IMG/VR virus record: IMGVR_UViG_3300036818_000105
Span: 32,001-96,000 of that record
Length of the DNA stretch: 64,000 nucleotides
Reading direction: 5' to 3' (one strand)
Source: a virus
Below, piece by piece: positions 2,508 to 58,551 of the stretch. The notes below the pieces were generated by a model. That model was not told where the DNA came from. It ran no database searches and saw only the letters and a list, made by a program, of their open reading frames with translations. The stretch's first letter is position 1; each line of letters opens with the position of its first letter. The position numbers and the translations under genes are program-made.

Positions 2508-2768
2508 CTAGTGCGAGCAGTTCGACGTGCCCGCACCGAAGCCGGGGATGCCGTGCGCCGTCCACGCCGGCTCAGCCGGCGGTGCCACTGTCCCCTCCGG
2601 CGCGTACTCAGCCTGCCCGCCGGCGACTAGGCCGGGGGCCTCGCGGGAACTGGCCCAGAACGCCTCGCCGACGGACACGTTCGCTAGCCTCCCGGACCAA
2701 GCGCTCTGGACCATCGGCTGGAGGGCCAGCAAAAGGATCGGCTGGTTTGGCGGAAGCGGAAACCCCAC
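2508..2768 (-). CDS. Hypothetical protein
   Basis: Starts MGFPL like its neighbour; ends GFGAGTSN. Confidence 0.65.
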   Translation of the reverse strand: MGFPLPPNQPILLLALQPMVQSAWSGRLANVSVGEAFWASSREAPGLVAGGQAEYAPEGTVAPPAEPAWTAHGIPGFGAGTSNCSH

Positions 2769-2772
2769 CTGA

Positions 2773-3090
2773 TCAGGCTACTTCCCCGGGCGCACCGAGG
2801 ACGGTAACGAAGCCGCCCCCCGCGTCCGCGACGACCTGCCAGCCCGCGTCCCGCAGGACGCCCGTATAGCGCTCCAGCGCGGCGTCCGTCGTCGACTGAA
2901 GGGTCTCGCCAGGCCCCGTGGACATGTTCACGCGGGTGACACGGACCTCTCCCGATTCCTGCCACGCGCGCCAGCCGGAGGCGATGACCTCGCCGCCCAC
3001 CGTGACCGCCTCCAGGTACCGCGCCTTTTGCATGGCACCCGACACGGCCTCAACGGTCGGAGGGTTCGTGTCGGTCAGTGGAAATCCCAT
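2773..3090 (-). CDS. Hypothetical protein
   Basis: Starts MGFPL; GC3-rich. Confidence 0.65.
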   Translation of the reverse strand: MGFPLTDTNPPTVEAVSGAMQKARYLEAVTVGGEVIASGWRAWQESGEVRVTRVNMSTGPGETLQSTTDAALERYTGVLRDAGWQVVADAGGGFVTVLGAPGEVA

Positions 3091-3106: not shown

Positions 3107-3394
3107 TCAGATCAGGCGACCGCACCTCGTGCAGAATGAGCCGGGCGGGATGCGGTGCTCGCACGGGGCCTCGCTGGCGGGCTCGGCCGCGCCCGTGCCG
3201 ACGTCCGTGTGCGCCGTGCTGGCCACGGGCTGGCCATCCCGGTCAAAGCGGCTGAGTTCAGCATCAATGGCGCCCTCGACCCAGACTGACCGGGGCGTCT
3301 CGCCGCGCGCCTTGTCGATCGCTTCCGCCTTCGGCTCGCTTACGCGGACCGGGATGACAACTCGCTTGCCCTCAGGGGTCCGTTCTCTCGCCAT
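3107..3394 (-). CDS. Ribbon-helix-helix-like DNA-binding protein with C-terminal Cys/His motif
   Basis: VVIPVRVSEPKAEAIDKARGETPRSVWVEGAI fits the RHH pattern; divergent from tnpB. Confidence 0.65.
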   Translation of the reverse strand: MARERTPEGKRVVIPVRVSEPKAEAIDKARGETPRSVWVEGAIDAELSRFDRDGQPVASTAHTDVGTGAAEPASEAPCEHRIPPGSFCTRCGRLI

Positions 3395-3400
3395 GGAAGG

Positions 3401-3416
3401 AGTATACGCGTATACT
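3401..3416. promoter_or_regulatory. Perfect 16-bp palindrome forming back-to-back -10 boxes for two leaderless genes
   Basis: AGTATACGCGTATACT; TATACT lies 6 nt before GTG 3423 on + and 6 nt before ATG 3394 on -. Confidence 0.75.
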
Positions 3417-3422
3417 GATTGA

Positions 3423-4685
3423 GTGACTATACGGAACCGGCTATACCCCGACGCACGGGCGGAAGCGATCATGCGCGACCTGCACTGTGCGCAAGCCCGG
3501 TACGTGTGGAACCTCTGCGTCGAGCAGGAATCCTGGTGGCGGCGGGACCGCGGGAAGATGCCAACCTGGGTAGAGCGATGCCGCCAGTTGGCTGAGGCGC
3601 GGACTGAGTTTGAGTGGCTTCGCGCGGGCAGTAATGCAGTCCAGCAGCAGGCCATCAGGGACTTCGGACGGGCGATGACCGCCTTCCTTGATCCGAAGAA
3701 CCCGGCTAGAGAGCCAACGTTCCGGAAGGCGGTCCGCGATGAAGGATTTCGCATCGTCGGGGAGCGATCGGGACCGCACGTTTCCTGGGGCCTTCGGCGC
3801 CTGAACCGCAATTGGGGCGAGGTCCGCATCCCGAAGGTCGGCTGGGTCCGCTTCCGCTGGTCTAGGCCAGTTCCGGGAGATGTGAAGTCCTTCCGGGTCA
3901 CCCTTGACCGCGCAGGCCGATGGCACGTCTCGTTTCCGTCTCCGCAGGGCGCCGTCGGCCGTCGGCCGACCGGGGCGGCCGTCGGCATTGACCGGGGCGT
4001 CCGAACTGCCCTGGTCACCTCAGAAGGCCAGCATTTCCGAGTGCCCAGAATTGGCGACCGTGCTGCAGGGCGGTACGTCGCCCTGCAGCGGCGCATGTCC
4101 CGCCAGCAGAAGGGCTCGCGCAAGAGGGAGAAAACCCGGCTGGCAATGGCCCGGATCGCGGTAAGGGTTGCCGACCGGCGCAAGGACTGGGCAGAGAAGG
4201 TCTCCACGCGACTTGTTAGCGACTACGACCTGATCGTGTTCGAAAAGCTGAACGTGGTCCGCATGACTCGCAAGTCTGCACCCAAGTCCGATCCTGATCA
4301 GGTCGGTGCATTCCTTCCCAACAAGGCCCGCGCGAAGGCTGGGCTGAACCGAGGCATCCTCGCGGCATGCTGGGGCATTCTGGCCGCCCGTGCCGAGGAG
4401 AAGGCTGTCGCATCAGGCGTGAGTGTCATCTACGTCAACCCGAGATTCACCTCGCAGCAGTGCCATGCGTGCGGCCACGTGAGCCGGAAGAACCGCGAGA
4501 GCCAAGCGGTATTCCGGTGTGAGTCCTGTGGCCACCATGATCATGCTGACGCGAACGCTGCGAAGAACGTACTTGCCCGGGGGCTAGGCACAATGGCGGT
4601 CCCTGCGCACGCCCCGGGTCACGGGGTGCAACGCCCGCATAAGTCCGCGAGAGCGGCGGCGGGAACCACCCGGAGTGCGACATAA
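3423..4685 (+). CDS. tnpB: RNA-guided endonuclease TnpB (IS200/IS605 family), copy 1
   Basis: ARYVWN N-terminus; RuvC motifs GIDRG, VFEKL, HADANAAKN; zinc finger CHAC...CESC. Confidence 0.93.
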   Translation: MTIRNRLYPDARAEAIMRDLHCAQARYVWNLCVEQESWWRRDRGKMPTWVERCRQLAEARTEFEWLRAGSNAVQQQAIRDFGRAMTAFLDPKNPAREPTFRKAVRDEGFRIVGERSGPHVSWGLRRLNRNWGEVRIPKVGWVRFRWSRPVPGDVKSFRVTLDRAGRWHVSFPSPQGAVGRRPTGAAVGIDRGVRTALVTSEGQHFRVPRIGDRAAGRYVALQRRMSRQQKGSRKREKTRLAMARIAVRVADRRKDWAEKVSTRLVSDYDLIVFEKLNVVRMTRKSAPKSDPDQVGAFLPNKARAKAGLNRGILAACWGILAARAEEKAVASGVSVIYVNPRFTSQQCHACGHVSRKNRESQAVFRCESCGHHDHADANAAKNVLARGLGTMAVPAHAPGHGVQRPHKSARAAAGTTRSAT

Positions 4686-4745
4686 GCACTCCGGGAAATC
4701 CCCGTCCATCAAGTCGGGGAGGATGTCAAATCCAGTACTTCGCGT
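4600..4745 (+). ncRNA. omegaRNA of tnpB #1: scaffold, right end and guide (5' boundary approximate)
   Basis: Stem CCCGGAGTGC/GCACTCCGGG; right end ATCCCC...GGGGAGGATGTCAA ending at 4729; guide from 4730. Confidence 0.75.
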
Positions 4746-4775
4746 GGCAGTGCCCGAGGTGACAGGAGGATCGCC

Positions 4776-5360
4776 ATGAGCAACCCAGACATTCAGTATT
4801 TCGGCAGTTCCGGCACGTGGGTAAAGCCCCCGAACGCCGTCCGCGTTGACGTGGTGCTCAAGGGCGGCGACGGCGCCGCCCCCGGCACCGTGCCGGGCGG
4901 AGGCGGCGACCCGCTCTCGGGCCCTGCGTTTACAGGCACCGGAACCCTTAACGGCAGCACGGGCGGTGGGGGCGGCGGCGGTACGGCCGTGTATCCCGCT
5001 GCCCGGGGAGGCTCCGGGCCGCGCGTCAGCGTGGTCTGCAGCCCGAGCCCGGCCGCGTCTCCCGTAGGAATCCTAGGCTCGCTGAGCGTGGATTCTTACG
5101 ACGCCGATGACTTTCCCGCCGAGCTTCACGTCGAGGTCGGCAAGGGCGGCAGGCCCGGAGGCCGGGACGGGTACGCGCTGATCGTCACTCACCTGGCCTC
5201 GCCTAGCCTGCCGTCAGTTCCGCCGCATGACCTGATGCTTCACGCCCACTCCCGCGACCACCCGGACGACGGGGAGCCGCACGAGCACCTTCACGCCGGG
5301 CCCGGTCACATGGGACTTGAGCACGTCCACCCGCACCGGCATGCCTCGGGAGAGCAGTGA
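4776..5360 (+). CDS. Glycine-rich domain protein with a His-rich tail
   Basis: QYFGSSGTWVKPPNAVRVDVVLKGGDG resembles the Gly-rich module of tail proteins; AGGAGG RBS. Confidence 0.65.
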   Translation: MSNPDIQYFGSSGTWVKPPNAVRVDVVLKGGDGAAPGTVPGGGGDPLSGPAFTGTGTLNGSTGGGGGGGTAVYPAARGGSGPRVSVVCSPSPAASPVGILGSLSVDSYDADDFPAELHVEVGKGGRPGGRDGYALIVTHLASPSLPSVPPHDLMLHAHSRDHPDDGEPHEHLHAGPGHMGLEHVHPHRHASGEQ

Positions 5361-20225: not shown

Positions 20226-20471
20226 ATGACCGACGCTAGCCCGGTTGCCATCCAGCGAGCCATCGCGGCCAACATCCGAGCCGAACGCGCCCGCGCCCGG
20301 CTCTCTCAGCAGGCCGTGGCAGACGCCATGCAGAAGCGCGGGTTCGCCTACTGGCGCCAGCAGACAACCGGAGCGACCGAACGCGGCGAGCGCCGGATAA
20401 CCGCCGATGAACTGACCGCACTCGCCGCCGTATTCGGCACCGCGCCGGAGACGCTCTGGCGGATGCCGTGA
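20226..20471 (+). CDS. XRE-family HTH regulator
   Basis: NIRAERARARLSQQAVADAM...ERGERRITADELTALAAVFG; TAGAAT lies 6 nt before the ATG. Confidence 0.85.
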   Translation: MTDASPVAIQRAIAANIRAERARARLSQQAVADAMQKRGFAYWRQQTTGATERGERRITADELTALAAVFGTAPETLWRMP

Positions 20472-21658
20472 GGCGGGCCTACAAGTTCCTCGCATACCCG
20501 ACGCGACCCCAGGAGGGCCGCTCGGGCGCGCTGCTGCGCGACCACTGCGACCTGTACGACGCCGCGCTCGAGGAACGCCGCGAGGCGTGGCGGATGCGGA
20601 AAGCTCCGGTGTCCTACGGCATGCAGTCTGCCCAGCTCAAGGAGATCCGAGCGGCCGACCCGGACGGGCAGGGGAGGCACTCGTTCACCGCCCAGCAGCA
20701 AACCCTGCGCAGGCTCAACGACGCGTTCGTTATGTTCTACAAGCGGTGCAAGATCCCGGGCAAGAAGCCGGGCTACCCGAGGTTCAAGCCGTACGCCCGG
20801 TTCGATCAGGTCCGGTTCGTCGCCGGAGACGGTGCGAAGTGGACCCCGGCGAACGGCATTGGCTGGGCACGCGCCTACTTCCAGGCGGTCGGCTCGGTCA
20901 AGGTGAAGCAGCACCGGCCGGTGACGGGCACCGTCAAGGCGCTCCAACTCAAGCGGGAGCACCGCCGCTGGTACGTCATCGTCATCACCGAAACTGAGCC
21001 GGTGCCGCTGCCCCCGGCGGGCCGTGAAGTCGGCGTAGACGTGGGGGTGGTGCGGTTCCTGACCACCTCGGACGGCGGGATCGTGGCCAATCCGCGTTTC
21101 TTCGCCGCGTCGGCCGGGGTGATCGCGGACTTGCAGCGCCGCATGAACCGCGCCAGGCCGGGTTCGGGGAACCGCAAGCGGATCAGGCGCGCCCTGGCCC
21201 GGGAGCACCGCAAGGTCAGGAACTCCCGCCGCGACTTCCACCACAAGACCGCGCGAATTCTCATTGACGAGTGTGACGTGATCGCCCTGGAAGACCTCAA
21301 CACGGAAGGGATGACCAGGCGTCCCAAACCGAAGCCCGACCCGGACAAGCCGGGCGAGCACCTCCCGAACGGGGCCGCCTCCAAGGCCGGCCTGAACAAG
21401 TCGATACGCGACGCGGGCTGGGCACAGTTCATGAGCATCATCGTCGGCAAGGCTGAGAGCGCCGGCCGGCGAGTGATCCTGGTGGACCCGCGGAACACGA
21501 GCATCGACTGTCACCAGTGCGGGCGAAGATGCGAGCGCCCGCAGCAGGACACGGTTATCTGCCCCGCGCACGGCGCGATGGACGCCGACGTGAACGGGGC
21601 CAGAAACATCGCCAGCAGGGCCGGGCTGGGCTCTGGTCAGGCCGCGCGAGCGGCCTGA
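20468..21658 (+). CDS. tnpB: RNA-guided endonuclease TnpB, copy 2
   Basis: RAYKFLAYPT; RuvC motifs GVDVG, ALEDL, DADVNGARNI; zinc finger; GTGA-coupled to the XRE gene. Confidence 0.93.
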   Translation: MRRAYKFLAYPTRPQEGRSGALLRDHCDLYDAALEERREAWRMRKAPVSYGMQSAQLKEIRAADPDGQGRHSFTAQQQTLRRLNDAFVMFYKRCKIPGKKPGYPRFKPYARFDQVRFVAGDGAKWTPANGIGWARAYFQAVGSVKVKQHRPVTGTVKALQLKREHRRWYVIVITETEPVPLPPAGREVGVDVGVVRFLTTSDGGIVANPRFFAASAGVIADLQRRMNRARPGSGNRKRIRRALAREHRKVRNSRRDFHHKTARILIDECDVIALEDLNTEGMTRRPKPKPDPDKPGEHLPNGAASKAGLNKSIRDAGWAQFMSIIVGKAESAGRRVILVDPRNTSIDCHQCGRRCERPQQDTVICPAHGAMDADVNGARNIASRAGLGSGQAARAA

Positions 21659-21711
21659 GAAGGTGGCGGAGCGATCCGCCATAGCAGTCACCCAGTTTTC
21701 CAGATACGTCG
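21590..21711 (+). ncRNA. omegaRNA of tnpB #2 (5' boundary approximate); right end at TCAC 21691, guide from 21692
   Basis: Hairpin TGGCGGA-GCGA-TCCGCCA followed by TAGCAGTCAC. Confidence 0.75.
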
Positions 21712-21875: not shown

Positions 21876-23492
21876 ATGGTCGACACTCGCTCCGCAAATG
21901 TCGTCGCCTTCCCCGACCTCGCGCCGAAGGGCTCTCGCGGCCCCAGCGGCAAGCGGGCCCTTTTGGGTCCAGAGGTAGGGACGTCGTTCGATTACGGACA
22001 GCGCTTGTTCGCCTACTATTAGTTAAGGCGAAGGAGATGTGTTCGACTACGGCTTAGCGAATTTTCCGCTCGTGACTACAAAACGATGTTGTCCCGTAAC
22101 GGAATGTGCGCGGCCATCGAGCAGGTACTCACTCTCCCGATCAGGGGCGCCCCGTACACCATCGAGCCCGCCAAGGGTGACCAGGGCGAGGCCGAGTTCG
22201 TGACCAGCGTTCTCATGACAGCCGACGAGGACGGCGGCATGAAAACACCTATCAGCACGCTGGTCGGCCAGATTACGAGCGCGCAGATTTTCCGTCGCGC
22301 CTTCTTCGAACGTACTTACAAGGTTCGCGAATCCGACGGCAAGATCATTTACGACAAGGTGGCCTTTCGCCCCCCCGCGACCTGTCAGGCCAGGTACAAC
22401 GACCGTACGGGCGAGCCGAACGGGTTCCGTCAGCAGGTCTGGTTGTTCGGCGGGAACTTGATGCTCAACCGCACTCAGAAGGTTCCCGGCTACGTCGACA
22501 TCCCGAAAATCAGGAGCTACATATACACCCACGGGAAACACAGGGAACCTCTCACTGGTGTCAGTGAGATGGAAACGGCCTACTGGTGCTACCAGACCCA
22601 GGCGAAGCTAGCCTACCTATGGCTCAGCTTTCTCGAGGGAATGGCGATGCAGCGCCTCGTCGTCTACGGCAACGACCAGCCGGAGGCATCCCAGCGAGCG
22701 GATGACATCTCCCAGCTGCGCGGTTCCGGCATTGTCGGCCTTATCCACCCGATCGACGGGCAGAAGTCGTTCGAGGCCCTCCCCACGGCCGCGGACGCGG
22801 GCGCCCAGTTCGCGGCGTGCATGACGTACCTGGAGAACTGGGCAGCCAGCAGCGTCCTCGCCGGCTTCCTGCAGCTTTCCGGCGCGGCGGCGAAGGGCAC
22901 CCGGGCGGGCGGCGGCGCCAGTGCCGGCTCCTACGGCATGAGCGAGGACCAGAGCTCGTACTACCTGGCCTCCCGTGAGGCGGCGGCAACGGAGATAGCG
23001 GACAGTATCTCCCATGACCTGATCCGCCCCCTGGTGACCCTGAACTTCGGCGCGGACGCGGCGTTCCCGAAGTGGAAGTTCGGCCCGTTGCAGGAGGCCA
23101 TGACGGCCGTACTTTTCACCATGTTCGGGCAGCTAGCCGCCGCCCCCAAATTGAACCTGCCCCTCGCGTTCGTGGACCTCCTCACCGAGCGGATGGCGGT
23201 GATCCTGAACCTGGACGCGGACCAGATTCACGAGTCGCTGGTGAATACCGCGTCGCAGCGGGCGGAGGCGCTGGCGGGCAATCCCCCGCCCGGCATACCC
23301 CCGGAGGCCGCGGCGGGACTGGGGCAGTTGCAGGGGCTGGCGCAGGCGGGGACGTCGATCGCGCAGCAGGCGATAGCGAGGAACGGCGGGCCGCCGACGC
23401 CGCCGAAGGTGACCATGCCGCCGGCCGGGCCGCCCGCGCCCCCGCCCAAGCCGCCGATGGCCGGGGGACTCGCGGGGGCGGCGGCGCAGTGA
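21876..23492 (+). CDS. Portal protein; 5' part interrupted by 7-nt and 5-nt inserts (uninterrupted ORF is 22086..23492)
   Basis: Position after terL; ISHDLIRPLVTLNFG typical of Mu gp29/DUF935-type portals; AGGAGG RBS before ATG 21876, in frame with 22086. Confidence 0.8.
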
Positions 23493-56295: not shown

Positions 56296-58551
56296 GTGTC
56301 CTTCACCGCCGTAGGCAGCAACCCGCCCACCACCTCGACCACGTCCAACTCGTTCTCCCTGGCCCCGCACGCCGCCGGCGACTTCATCCTGCTTGGCGTC
56401 CTCGCCGGGTTCACCACGGGCAGCGCCGCCGACTACGCCACCTCGGTCAGCAGCAGCAACGGCAACGTCACCTGGTCCGTCCTCGTCGCCCACACCGCGT
56501 TCGGCACGGGCGGCACCGGCGCGCAGACGGTCTTCATCGGCAAGGTCAACAGCACCACCAGCGGCACCCAGACGATCGGGTTCAACGCGGGCAGCCCGAC
56601 CTGCCGCATCGCCTGGCAGGAGTTCAGCAACACCCTCGGGTACAGCGCCGTCACCCTCGACGGGTCCCCCGGCACCATAGACGTCGGGTCGAGCGCCCGC
56701 TTCCCCTCGCTCACGCCCGGCCACGGCAGCGGCGAGCTGTACTGGGGCTACCTCTGGGACAACGGCACCGCCGCCGCGGGCAGCACCTCCGGGTACTCGT
56801 ACTACTTCGACGCCAACGGCAACCCGATGGCCGTCAACACGGCCTGCGGGACGGGCGCGCAGGCCCCCAACCTCGGGGACACCGGCGACGGCGTCGCCGG
56901 CATAGCCGTCCTGCTCTACGAGGCGGTCACCACCGTCAGCGGCGCTGCCGCCCTGTCCGGGTCGGGCACGCTCGGGGCGGGCGGGCGCGTGGCGGTGCCG
57001 GGCGCGGCCACGCTGGCGGGCGCCGGCTCCCTCGGGGCCTCCCCGGCTGTCGCCATACCGGGGTCCGTGACCCTGCTCGGCACAGGGTCCCTGACCGCCG
57101 GGGGAAACGTCTCCGCGCCAGGGCAGGCGTCCGCCAGCCTGTTCGGGAGCGGGTCGCTGTCCGCGGCTGGCTATGCCGGCTGGCAGCCCGCTGTCACCCT
57201 GTCCGGCACGGGCACTATCGGCGCGCAGTACACGGGGGTCACCCTCCAGGGCGTTACCCTCGCCGGGGCCGGCGCGCTCACCGCCGGCGGGTCGGCAGGG
57301 CTCAAGTTCACCTCAGGGCTGGCCGGGGCCGGGTTCCTGTCCATCCCGCAGGTCAGCGGCGGCCTGGTCCCCGGCGTCGGCGGGGCGGCCGCGCCGCAGG
57401 CGCTGCCCGGGTCAAGCCAGGTCGCCGTCGCGCCGCAGGGATCGGGCAACTGGCAGTGGCTCGGCACGCTCGGGCAGGTCACCGCCCTGACCTACAGCTA
57501 CGTGTGCCCCGGCGGGTGCGACCAGCTCACCATGACGATCATGGTCCCGGCCGCCTACCGGACGCAGCTGTTCAACCCCGGGTGGCAGGTGAAAGTCATC
57601 CGCGGGGGGCACCGGGTCTGGTACGGGAAGCTAGACGAGCCGCAGCCGTCAGCCAGCGGCTGGACGCTGACCGCGGTCGGGGCCGGGAACCTCTCGCAGA
57701 ACTTCGTCGCCTACTATTCCGTGGACGACGTGTGGCCCGAAGACGAGCCCGATGAGATCATCAACCGGGCGATCAGCCGGGGACTCCCGTGGGTCAACCC
57801 AGGGCTCAACAGCGGGCCGTACGCCTCGCAGTACTGGATGGGGCAGGCCACCGACCCCGGCTCGCAGAACGTCTCGGCGTTCCTGAACTTGATCTGCACG
57901 CGCGGCGGCCTGCTGTGGTACGTCAACAGCCAGCCGGGCGGGAGCTACGGCGGGAACAACCTGTCCGTCTTCCCGCTGCCCACCGTGCCGAACCGGCTGC
58001 TGGTGTGCACGACCCCCGTGGCGCGGACGCTCGGCGGCTACGTGAACACGTTGTTCATAAGGTACGAATCGGTCGCTGACAACACAACGACCAACGTGGC
58101 CGCCTCATATGACGTCGTGACCGCGATTAACTCTCAGTCGGTGACCGCTCACGGAACGCTAGAGTCGTACCTGGATCTAAGCGACGCCGGCCAGTTGTCC
58201 TCCGCAGCCGCCCAAGCTGTCGGCAATTCCATACTGAGCATCTACGAGGCCGCCAGCTTCGCCGGGCCGTTCACTGTCTCCTACGGACAGCTGCTCAACA
58301 TGGGCGGCCAGCCAGTGGATATCGCCTGTGACCAGGCCGGTTCTATGGTGAAGTTGGTTCTAACCGACTTTGCGTACGGCGGATCGGTCACACCGAACAT
58401 TCCCGTCGCATTCATCGTAGGGAGCTACGCATATGACGACTTCGCCCAAACTGCGACAATTACTCCGTATCAGTCCCTGAACGAAAGTCTTAGCGGGTTG
58501 CTCTCCATGACGAGCACCGTCATGACTCCACTCACCGTGGCTTCCACCTAG
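56296..58551 (+). CDS. Minor tail protein (SGSGTL spacer plus C-terminal hub-like domain)
   Basis: LTYSYVCPGGCDQL, RVWYGKLDEP; position in the tail-tip module. Confidence 0.7.
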   Translation: MSFTAVGSNPPTTSTTSNSFSLAPHAAGDFILLGVLAGFTTGSAADYATSVSSSNGNVTWSVLVAHTAFGTGGTGAQTVFIGKVNSTTSGTQTIGFNAGSPTCRIAWQEFSNTLGYSAVTLDGSPGTIDVGSSARFPSLTPGHGSGELYWGYLWDNGTAAAGSTSGYSYYFDANGNPMAVNTACGTGAQAPNLGDTGDGVAGIAVLLYEAVTTVSGAAALSGSGTLGAGGRVAVPGAATLAGAGSLGASPAVAIPGSVTLLGTGSLTAGGNVSAPGQASASLFGSGSLSAAGYAGWQPAVTLSGTGTIGAQYTGVTLQGVTLAGAGALTAGGSAGLKFTSGLAGAGFLSIPQVSGGLVPGVGGAAAPQALPGSSQVAVAPQGSGNWQWLGTLGQVTALTYSYVCPGGCDQLTMTIMVPAAYRTQLFNPGWQVKVIRGGHRVWYGKLDEPQPSASGWTLTAVGAGNLSQNFVAYYSVDDVWPEDEPDEIINRAISRGLPWVNPGLNSGPYASQYWMGQATDPGSQNVSAFLNLICTRGGLLWYVNSQPGGSYGGNNLSVFPLPTVPNRLLVCTTPVARTLGGYVNTLFIRYESVADNTTTNVAASYDVVTAINSQSVTAHGTLESYLDLSDAGQLSSAAAQAVGNSILSIYEAASFAGPFTVSYGQLLNMGGQPVDIACDQAGSMVKLVLTDFAYGGSVTPNIPVAFIVGSYAYDDFAQTATITPYQSLNESLSGLLSMTSTVMTPLTVAST

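Follow-up and report, generated by a model that had tools for sequence, protein, structure and literature searches.

TnpB, the RNA-guided nuclease encoded by IS200/IS605 transposons, cleaves donor sites from which its transposon has been lost and thereby ensures that the element is retained there, and nuclease-dead relatives of TnpB have been retargeted as repressors. The latter, known as TldR, include phage-encoded representatives (bioRxiv 10.1101/2023.11.30.569447, PMC13418256). A nuclease of another kind, also phage-borne, is represented by Seg and Mob, the free-standing homing endonucleases of T-even phages, which spread by 'intronless homing' (PMC13565253). Here we analyse a 64,000-nt stretch (hereafter, the window; bases 32001–96000) of the IMG/VR record IMGVR_UViG_3300036818_000105, a soil phage with a genome of 124,491 bp (GC content 70.7%) that has direct terminal repeats and is rated complete. 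We focus on the first of its two tnpB genes, tnpB #1, and on the adjoining downstream gene (the neighbour gene; all coordinates are collected in Table 1). The predicted guide of tnpB #1 begins with the commonest allele of a conserved motif of the neighbour gene, from which the phage's own copy departs at two positions, suggesting, tentatively, that the encoded nuclease might be directed at related phages.

The tnpB #1 product (TnpB#1) resembles the TnpB of ISDra2 (PDB 8bf8, 8exa, 8h1j) in family, domain order, catalytic D-E-D residues and zinc finger. It matches the Pfam families OrfB_IS605 (PF01385, 6e-16) and Cas12f1-like_TNB (PF07282, 1.1e-19), both above the cut-offs, and is aligned by HMMER to ISDra2 TnpB chains 8bf8/8h1j (E = 1.4e-25), with GIDRG, FEKLN, HADANAAKN and CxxC...CxxC lining up with the catalytic and zinc motifs. 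As in other IS200/IS605 TnpB systems, a structured RNA overlaps the 3' end of the gene, and a conserved right end is followed by a variable guide. The right end, ...GGAGGATGTCAA, terminates by direct reading at 4729. Two phage-borne relatives, L003 (65% protein identity) and L004 (62%), have only tnpB and approximately 45 nt behind it in common with the window, and in a three-way alignment the similarity is lost exactly after ...CAA. Across 75 scanned loci with TnpB#1 homologues (L003, L004 and L042–L114), the gene is followed, at the expected spacing, by an exact copy of GAGGATG[TC]CAA in 33 loci and by a close variant of it in L003 and L072, and the sequence after the motif differs every time, except for an insertion shared by L045, L055 and L087. 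Of nine additional copies in two metagenome-assembled genomes, six show the same motif followed by unrelated sequence; the 30%-identical TnpB of a related phage also ends in ...GGGGAGGATGTCAA, and the motif occurs in more than 115 stretches of viral contigs. The 170 nt before 4729 have a fold energy z-score of −4.5 relative to shuffles; a match of 4598–4741 to the Rfam family HgcC is weak, scoring 22.4 bits (E = 0.015) against a gathering score of 50. The alignments place the right-end boundary at 4729, so that, by analogy with characterized TnpB systems, the guide would begin at 4730 as part of an omegaRNA that is presumably expressed.

Other hallmarks of the transposon are lacking. The 28-bp spacer between tnpB #1 and the divergent gene at 3107–3394 is too small to accommodate a transposon left end, and the sequence upstream of tnpB #1, including the palindrome in this spacer, does not convincingly resemble the left ends found in relatives. 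Neither Y1_Tnp nor Resolvase (serine) was matched anywhere in the phage. Thus, unlike an intact IS200/IS605 transposon, which has a left end with its target-adjacent motif (TAM) and a TnpA, tnpB #1 is without a left end, its phage is without TnpA, and its promoter appears to be shared with a divergent small gene: the palindrome is likely the common promoter/operator of the two genes, and the product of the small gene may act as a regulator. TldR proteins similarly are domesticated TnpB relatives without transposon ends, with a guide that addresses a gene rather than the donor site, but they have lost the RuvC catalytic residues and are reported to repress host genes, whereas TnpB#1 keeps the D-E-D triad and its candidate target is a phage gene (PMC13418256). 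Judged from its sequence, tnpB #1 is a genuine TnpB-omegaRNA cassette devoid of left end and transposase and predicted to be nuclease-competent.

The first 13 bases of the predicted guide (4730–4742) read ATCCAGTACTTCG, and codons 6–10 of the neighbour gene read ATT CAG TAT TTC G (4791–4803). As the earlier note had claimed, both stretches encode I-Q-Y-F and are identical at 11 of 13 positions, the differences falling at guide positions 3 and 9, and CCAGAC flanks the resident site on its 5' side; every letter proved to be as quoted. The ATG of the neighbour gene, preceded by an AGGAGGA ribosome-binding site, starts 46 nt downstream of the guide start. The neighbour protein has 91 homologues at E ≤ 1e-3, many of them on contigs of ~125 kb, and its N-terminus is the most conserved part, with D5, I6 and Q7 being nearly invariant. 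Used as a single IMG/VR query, the protein yielded no confirmed locus; loci were obtained by an alignment query and pattern searches, which provided 20 distinct DNA alleles of the N-terminus beyond the window's own, from IMG/VR and metagenomes. In these 20 alleles, the Ile codon is ATC (18), ATA (1) or CTT (Leu; 1) and never ATT, and the Tyr codon is TAC (15), TAT (3) or TTC (Phe; 2). By these counts, guide bases 1–13 represent the majority allele of the family, and homologues are closer to the guide than the resident gene is. Guide bases 1–12 are matched perfectly by 12 of the 20 alleles, the longest uninterrupted run is 15 bases (L038), and the best overall match is 17/20. Neither of the observations that the earlier note had named as telling against targeting was made: the homologues are not uniformly more distant than the resident copy, and no intact gene was found of which the guide would be the 3' half.

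A match of this length might suffice for cleavage. ISDra2 TnpB naturally uses a guide of 16 nt and cuts 15–21 nt from the TAM, double mismatches at positions 1–12 abolish its cleavage but are tolerated at 13–16, and ~12 bp of pairing are enough (PMC10097598); for ISDge10 TnpB, editing drops below a guide length of 14 nt (PMC13507860). By these rules, the relatives' alleles pair with the guide over the TAM-proximal ~12 nt and the resident allele does not, a 12–15-base match would be sufficient provided that the TAM is accepted, and the resident mismatches at positions 3 and 9 would protect the phage's own copy.

The likely TAM can be deduced from related elements. In bacterial elements of the sister clade (clade 2, ~50% identical), a conserved left end of ~96 nt follows TCAT[C/G]N in 19 of 23 loci, with TCAT at −95 or −96 in 17 of the 19 and unrelated sequence further upstream. 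GTCATCA precedes the left end of L135, a bacterial relative of tnpB #2, and the probable left borders of L003 and L121 carry TCATCA and TCATGA. Given that TCAT lies beside the left ends of related elements, a TCAT-type TAM appears probable, in contrast to the TTGAT of ISDra2. For the clade nearest to TnpB#1, copies in G002 and G003 are similar only up to 66–81 nt before the start codon, and no shared flank was found; 87 viral right ends surveyed for the TAM contained nine usable elements.

The second tnpB gene of the phage provides a parallel case. Like tnpB #1, tnpB #2 has neither a left end nor a transposase, a small gene lies directly upstream, and its guide begins with a copy of a conserved motif from a structural gene close by, in this case that for the portal protein, with two synonymous differences from the resident copy. 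The similarity between tnpB #2 and its 71%-identical bacterial relative L135 ends at a shared ...GCAGTCACC, and in locus L039 ...GAGTCAC is followed by bases unlike those after tnpB #2. The match of guide #2 to the minus strand of the portal gene is longer than that of guide #1 (17/19, with 0.00 expected from shuffles), inverted and 1.1 kb away. A query with the portal protein fetched 46 relatives, with the motif present in 19 loci, the closest allele being that of L216, one base off guide #2; a degenerate portal pattern retrieved four loci, all unrelated. In guide sense, the 5' flank is TCAT in four loci (L223–L226), CCAT in eight (within L210–L216, plus L227 and L251), and CTGC in six (L217–L222) as well as in the resident gene. 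Hence, TCAT or CCAT adjoins the portal site in 12 of 19 loci, and the deduced TAM is present in relatives but absent from the phage's own gene, whereas at tnpB #1 such a flank is found in neither. The tnpB #2 pattern on which the earlier note had relied is genuine. The pattern of flanks lends credibility to the general idea of targeting by this phage and, at the same time, sharpens the contrast with tnpB #1. The portal alleles themselves fall into two classes according to the residues after T-Y-L-E-N-W (22823–22851, minus strand; L210–L227 and L251): those continuing W-M have TCAT or CCAT, and those continuing W-A, including the resident one, have CTGC. The same guide-to-gene pattern was not seen in L039.

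Taken together, these features are compatible with the following scenario. The tnpB #1 gene would be driven from the palindromic divergent promoter that it shares with the small gene, which is of a DNA-binding-like kind, and the omegaRNA, ending in its constant part at 4729, would carry the following bases as guide, the first 13 of which spell the commonest I-Q-Y-F allele of the conserved downstream gene. In a mixed infection, the complex would recognize and cut that allele in related phages, whereupon the rival would either be destroyed or have the break repaired with the tnpB-bearing genome as the source, in the manner of free-standing homing endonucleases in T-even phages, the phage's own copy being spared through the two mismatches. 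Guide #1 would then have originated by retargeting. We consider this homing or competition scenario plausible but unproven, and hold it tentatively.

Several observations weigh against it, the main one being the lack of a TAM-like flank. In all 20 alleles, the site is preceded by CCN followed by GAC (15), GAT (4) or GAA (1), and in none by TCAT, although this TAM was deduced from related elements rather than from TnpB#1 itself; the TGAY-type flank that the earlier note had predicted for relatives did not materialize either. Because the resident CCAGAC is of the same kind as the relatives' flanks, the TAM cannot distinguish self from rival at tnpB #1. At the columns that correspond to the TAM contacts of ISDra2 TnpB (Y52, S56, K76, F77 and Q80; PMC10097598), TnpB#1 has W, C, N, A and Q, and the TCAT clade has Y, C, Q/N, T/V and Q, which is similar but not identical. 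Guide bases 16–20 are not matched in any of the 20 alleles, and a search of IMG/VR for a full-length target returned 66 exact 15-mer matches, close to the random expectation, with none longer than 17 bases. The resident match, moreover, is not exceptional: the local alignment score of 4730–4775 against the next 125 nt is matched by 19% of shuffles (2.4% with gaps) and by 45% (21% with gaps) of natural neighbouring pairs in this genome. Nor is the guide-to-neighbour pattern general among viral elements, given that among 64 distinct right-end-plus-guide elements, seven guides have a counterpart of their first 13 nt within the next 1.5 kb (two mismatches or fewer), as do seven control 13-mers, and the TnpB of a related phage, G008, shows no second match.

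The argument from recoding is weak. The T-ending codons emphasized in the earlier note are indeed rare genome-wide (ATT accounts for 7.5% of Ile and TAT for 5.9% of Tyr codons in 91 open reading frames with 23,850 codons), but the neighbour gene has a G+C content of 79.5% at third codon positions, ~20% of its codons, and five of the first 16, end in A or T, and TAT occurs in three of 20 homologues; given this rate, the two T-ending codons of the resident gene are not significant. Among 22 alleles, A/T endings are found at 8/88 positions of the four target codons compared to 81/550 of 25 flanking codons (6/84 and 77/525 without the window), and since the target codons show fewer such endings than the flanks, there is no family-wide sign of escape at the site. 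Accordingly, the proposal of the earlier note that the guide targets the neighbour allele of relatives and that the resident copy has escaped holds for the closer match of 12 of 20 alleles and the two resident mismatches, and fails for the TAM and the significance of the recoding.

The flanking signal does not fit the homing case for tnpB #1, but the objection is softened to some extent by two considerations: TCAT is known from relatives only, and a Sulfolobus (archaeal) TnpB is reported to accept weak TAMs for templated repair, with heightened sensitivity to mismatches (PMC11043419). By comparison with that system, TnpB#1 might tolerate the CCN-GAY flank as a TAM. As to chance, the resemblance to the resident gene provides little evidence by itself, a same-strand match within 125 nt being estimated at ~0.5% by our own arithmetic from the 7/64 rate, and the match to the majority allele is stronger. 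Exact 13-mers of the allele set begin at 134 of 124,479 genome positions, ~25 of these in the gene itself, which leaves a background of ~9e-4 per position outside the gene, and the exact match of guide #1 starts at guide base 1. Allowing for freedom in strand, distance and the choice between two tnpB genes, we estimate the probability of a chance match at roughly 0.1–3%.

An ordinary, decayed insertion could account for much of this without any role for the neighbour gene, and we regard it as possible, if doubtful. In that case, an IS200/IS605-type element would have inserted 3' of a TCAT in the 3' end of an upstream gene since lost, the left end would have been lost in a subsequent deletion that joined tnpB to the divergent promoter, and the guide would be the old flank, with the empty site as its only real target and a coincidental I-Q-Y-F likeness. 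The short reading frame that begins with the guide is indeed GC-ending at 10/10 third positions and stops 13 nt before the next start codon, with the ribosome-binding site in between, like a normal gene junction; unrelated, variable genes occupy this position in relatives; and TCAT, the flank of related left ends, would supply a His codon, CAT, in frame. The resident match falling within the local-alignment background (19–45%), the equality of guides and controls at 7/64 each, and the chance recurrence, in the 1.2-kb locus L028, of a 13-mer overlapping the same motif also suit this explanation. It is harder to reconcile with an exact majority-allele match from guide base 1 at a background of ~9e-4 per position, or with the second, stronger guide-to-gene match in the same phage, and no relative was found with the predicted empty site or upstream gene: the loci of relatives and IMG/VR, as searched, yielded neither an empty site (TCAT-ATCCAGTACTTCGCGTGGCAG or TCAT-ATCCAGTACTTCGCGTGG), nor a donor gene, nor a longer target.

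The same reading frame could be what is left of the 3' end of an upstream gene now destroyed or, alternatively, of a partial copy of the 5' end of the neighbour gene. The cassette would then have entered, or been repaired into, a short duplicate of that 5' end, and the 13–25 nt after the right end would be a decaying fragment with no present function. With a 4-nt gap allowed, the similarity between 4730 onward and 4791–4823 extends past the 13-mer (GGCAGTGCC versus GGCAGTTCC) and includes a rare AGT codon, the gapped score being reached in 2.4% of shuffles but also by 21% of natural neighbouring pairs. That a TnpB cassette in L039 removed the 5' half of the homologous gene, and that short tandem duplications occur at right ends in this element family (L003 and L312), lend this course of events some substance. 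However, several rearrangements would be needed, and there would be no account of why the fragment begins precisely where the right end stops, with no TCAT at the matching place in the gene, or of why an inverted copy lies 1.1 kb away at tnpB #2; on balance, we find it unlikely. Neither a plain insertion nor a duplication accounts for tnpB #2. A very improbable third explanation is regulation, whereby TnpB and its omegaRNA would bind the start of the phage's own gene and tune its expression in the manner of nuclease-dead TldR. The site lies near the beginning of the downstream gene, and short guides are reported to bind without cutting (PMC13507860), but the catalytic triad is intact, and the phage's own copy has two TAM-proximal mismatches and lacks the flank of the family.

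If the homing or competition scenario is extended to both loci, the two domesticated TnpB-omegaRNA modules would be programmable free-standing homing or competition nucleases, with guides rewritten to copy conserved motifs in the structural genes of rivals by a process not yet described for TnpB. TnpB#1 would have drifted from TCAT to N-GAY, and self would escape by synonymous changes in the seed at tnpB #1 and by loss of the flank at tnpB #2; this extended version is speculative, and we give it limited credence. Under this scenario, guide #1 opens with a motif copied from the neighbouring gene and does not merely mark an empty donor site as in typical IS200/IS605 elements. The literature searched yielded no account of an active phage TnpB directed against an adjacent gene of relatives, the nearest concepts being intronless homing (PMC13565253) and the TldR repressors of phages. 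If true, an active, transposase-less phage TnpB with a guide against a conserved gene of competitors would be new; programmed by RNA, it would parallel the homing endonucleases of T-even phages, which are proteins, would represent an intermediate between the selfish nucleases of transposons and systems that exchange guides, such as CRISPR, and would raise the question of how a TnpB guide is replaced without transposition.

The setting of tnpB #1 is reminiscent of these homing endonucleases in that a nuclease gene occupies a variable spot between conserved genes, the conserved gene next to it would contain the putative target in relatives, and the carrier's allele differs by substitutions, although the target would be recognized through an RNA guide instead of a protein. 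Three leftward genes (2508–2768, 2773–3090 and 3107–3394) meet the rightward tnpB #1 and the neighbour gene. Homologues of the first lie 0.36–1.7 kb upstream of a neighbour-gene homologue in ten loci (L012, L013, L018, L021, L023, L027, L031, L036, L039 and L041; tblastn), and the contents of the gap differ among them, as is typical of the sites of free-standing homing endonucleases. The position of tnpB #1 is filled in relatives by rightward genes, which usually end in an ATGA overlap with the start of the neighbour gene. One of five complete relatives encodes a TnpB, at another locus. This island is in the pattern of a hotspot for mobile nuclease cassettes. The phage GenBank collection, searched with the 2.6-kb region for near and distant DNA matches, contained none. 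The product of 3107–3394 found no match in Pfam; in the tnpB-less locus L027, a homologue of its residues 51–95 adjoins the homologue of 2508–2768. In L039 (1244–3207), the same gap holds a ribbon-helix-helix gene in ATGA overlap with a 43%-identical TnpB on the opposite strand, and the neighbour-gene homologue, lacking the N-terminal ~100 residues, starts at the region aligning with residue 110 of the window's neighbour protein.

Table 1. Features of the two tnpB loci and their surroundings (window coordinates).
Feature	Position	Strand	Remarks
Conserved gene, left border of the variable island	2508..2768	-	tblastn homologues in ten loci
Divergent small gene	3107..3394	-	Open reading frame; N-terminal half ribbon-helix-helix-like by eye; no Pfam family
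Perfect 16-bp palindrome AGTATACGCGTATACT	3403..3418	.	In the 28-bp spacer between divergent start codons
tnpB #1	3423..4685	+	420 aa, GTG start; RuvC D-E-D triad and zinc finger intact
OmegaRNA scaffold and right end (predicted)	4560..4729	+	Ends ...GGGGAGGATGTCAA at 4729
Predicted guide #1	4730..4749	+	Bases 1–13 (4730–4742) equal the majority allele of neighbour-family codons 6–10
Reading frame I-Q-Y-F-A-W-Q-C-P-R-stop	4730..4762	+	G or C at 10/10 third positions; no counterpart in relatives
Neighbour gene	4776..5360	+	Glycine-rich family; conserved N-terminus M-S-N-P-D-I-Q-Y-F-x-x-S-G-T-W-V-K-P
Resident copy of the site	4785..4803	+	Flank CCAGAC + ATTCAGTATTTCG; mismatched at guide positions 3 and 9
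tnpB #2	20468..21658	+	35% identical to tnpB #1; start overlapped by the end of small gene 20226–20471
Start of predicted guide #2 CCAGTTTTCCAGATACGTC	21692..21710	+	17/19 to the portal gene
Portal-gene site T-Y-L-E-N-W	22823..22841	-	Resident flank CTGC

Several further candidates for a target of guide #1 were considered and rejected. A look-alike in L146/L149 sits antisense to an unrelated portal gene, and among the 15-mer matches, only L194 is possibly a neighbour homologue. The 31 nt after the 15-mer were compared with the normal upstream region of relatives and have no match in L006–L041. A 12/13 match to the guide start at 57827–57839 (minus strand) was judged to be due to chance, since its flank, GGCCTGCCCC, is not TAM-like and the context is unrelated. 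The 25-nt flank was not found, with up to three mismatches, among the 401 genomes searched from the order of G001. No second copy of the neighbour gene was found in the phage, the only matches being to glycine-rich, low-complexity sequence. The neighbour protein carries a histidine-rich tail with H-x-H repeats (5200–5360), common only to its closest homologues (P0001–P0009, of which P0001 is 60% identical) and absent in most of the family.

The right ends display some peculiarities of their own. They finish in GTCAA in the tnpB #1 family (4725–4729 in the window) or GTCAC in the tnpB #2 family (21687–21691), and the left-end flank is GTCAT (L044–L075). The three appear to be one pentanucleotide with a variable last base, which would fit the paired TnpA cleavage sites known in this transposon family, for instance from IS608. 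In L003 (3771–3812), the last ~15 bases of the right end and ~15 guide bases are tandemly duplicated (GGGAGGGTGCCAACC, 15 nt, GGGAGGGTGCCAACC), so that a two-unit, repeat-spacer-like layout is found at a TnpB right end, with the first unit making the ATG of the next gene. In L312 (190–290), the terminal 53-nt module of the right end, consisting of two hairpins and ending in GGGGAGGATGTCAA, is tandemly duplicated with no spacer, and L266 contains the motif in three copies within 7.3 kb. In the window, a small frame (4723–4779) runs from an ATG inside the right end to a TGA overlapping the ATG of the neighbour gene and shares with the latter the first four residues, M-S-N-P, in different codons; because ATGTCAA is conserved in all right ends, this likeness is probably a coincidence.

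Relatives of both TnpB proteins co-occur in one bacterial genome. G003 (L117, L119, L125 and L135), an uncultured member of the Actinomycetota, encodes a 63%-identical relative of TnpB#1 together with the 71%-identical relative of TnpB#2, and the closest bacterial copies, which are found in Streptosporangiaceae-like genomes, hint at the host group of the phage.

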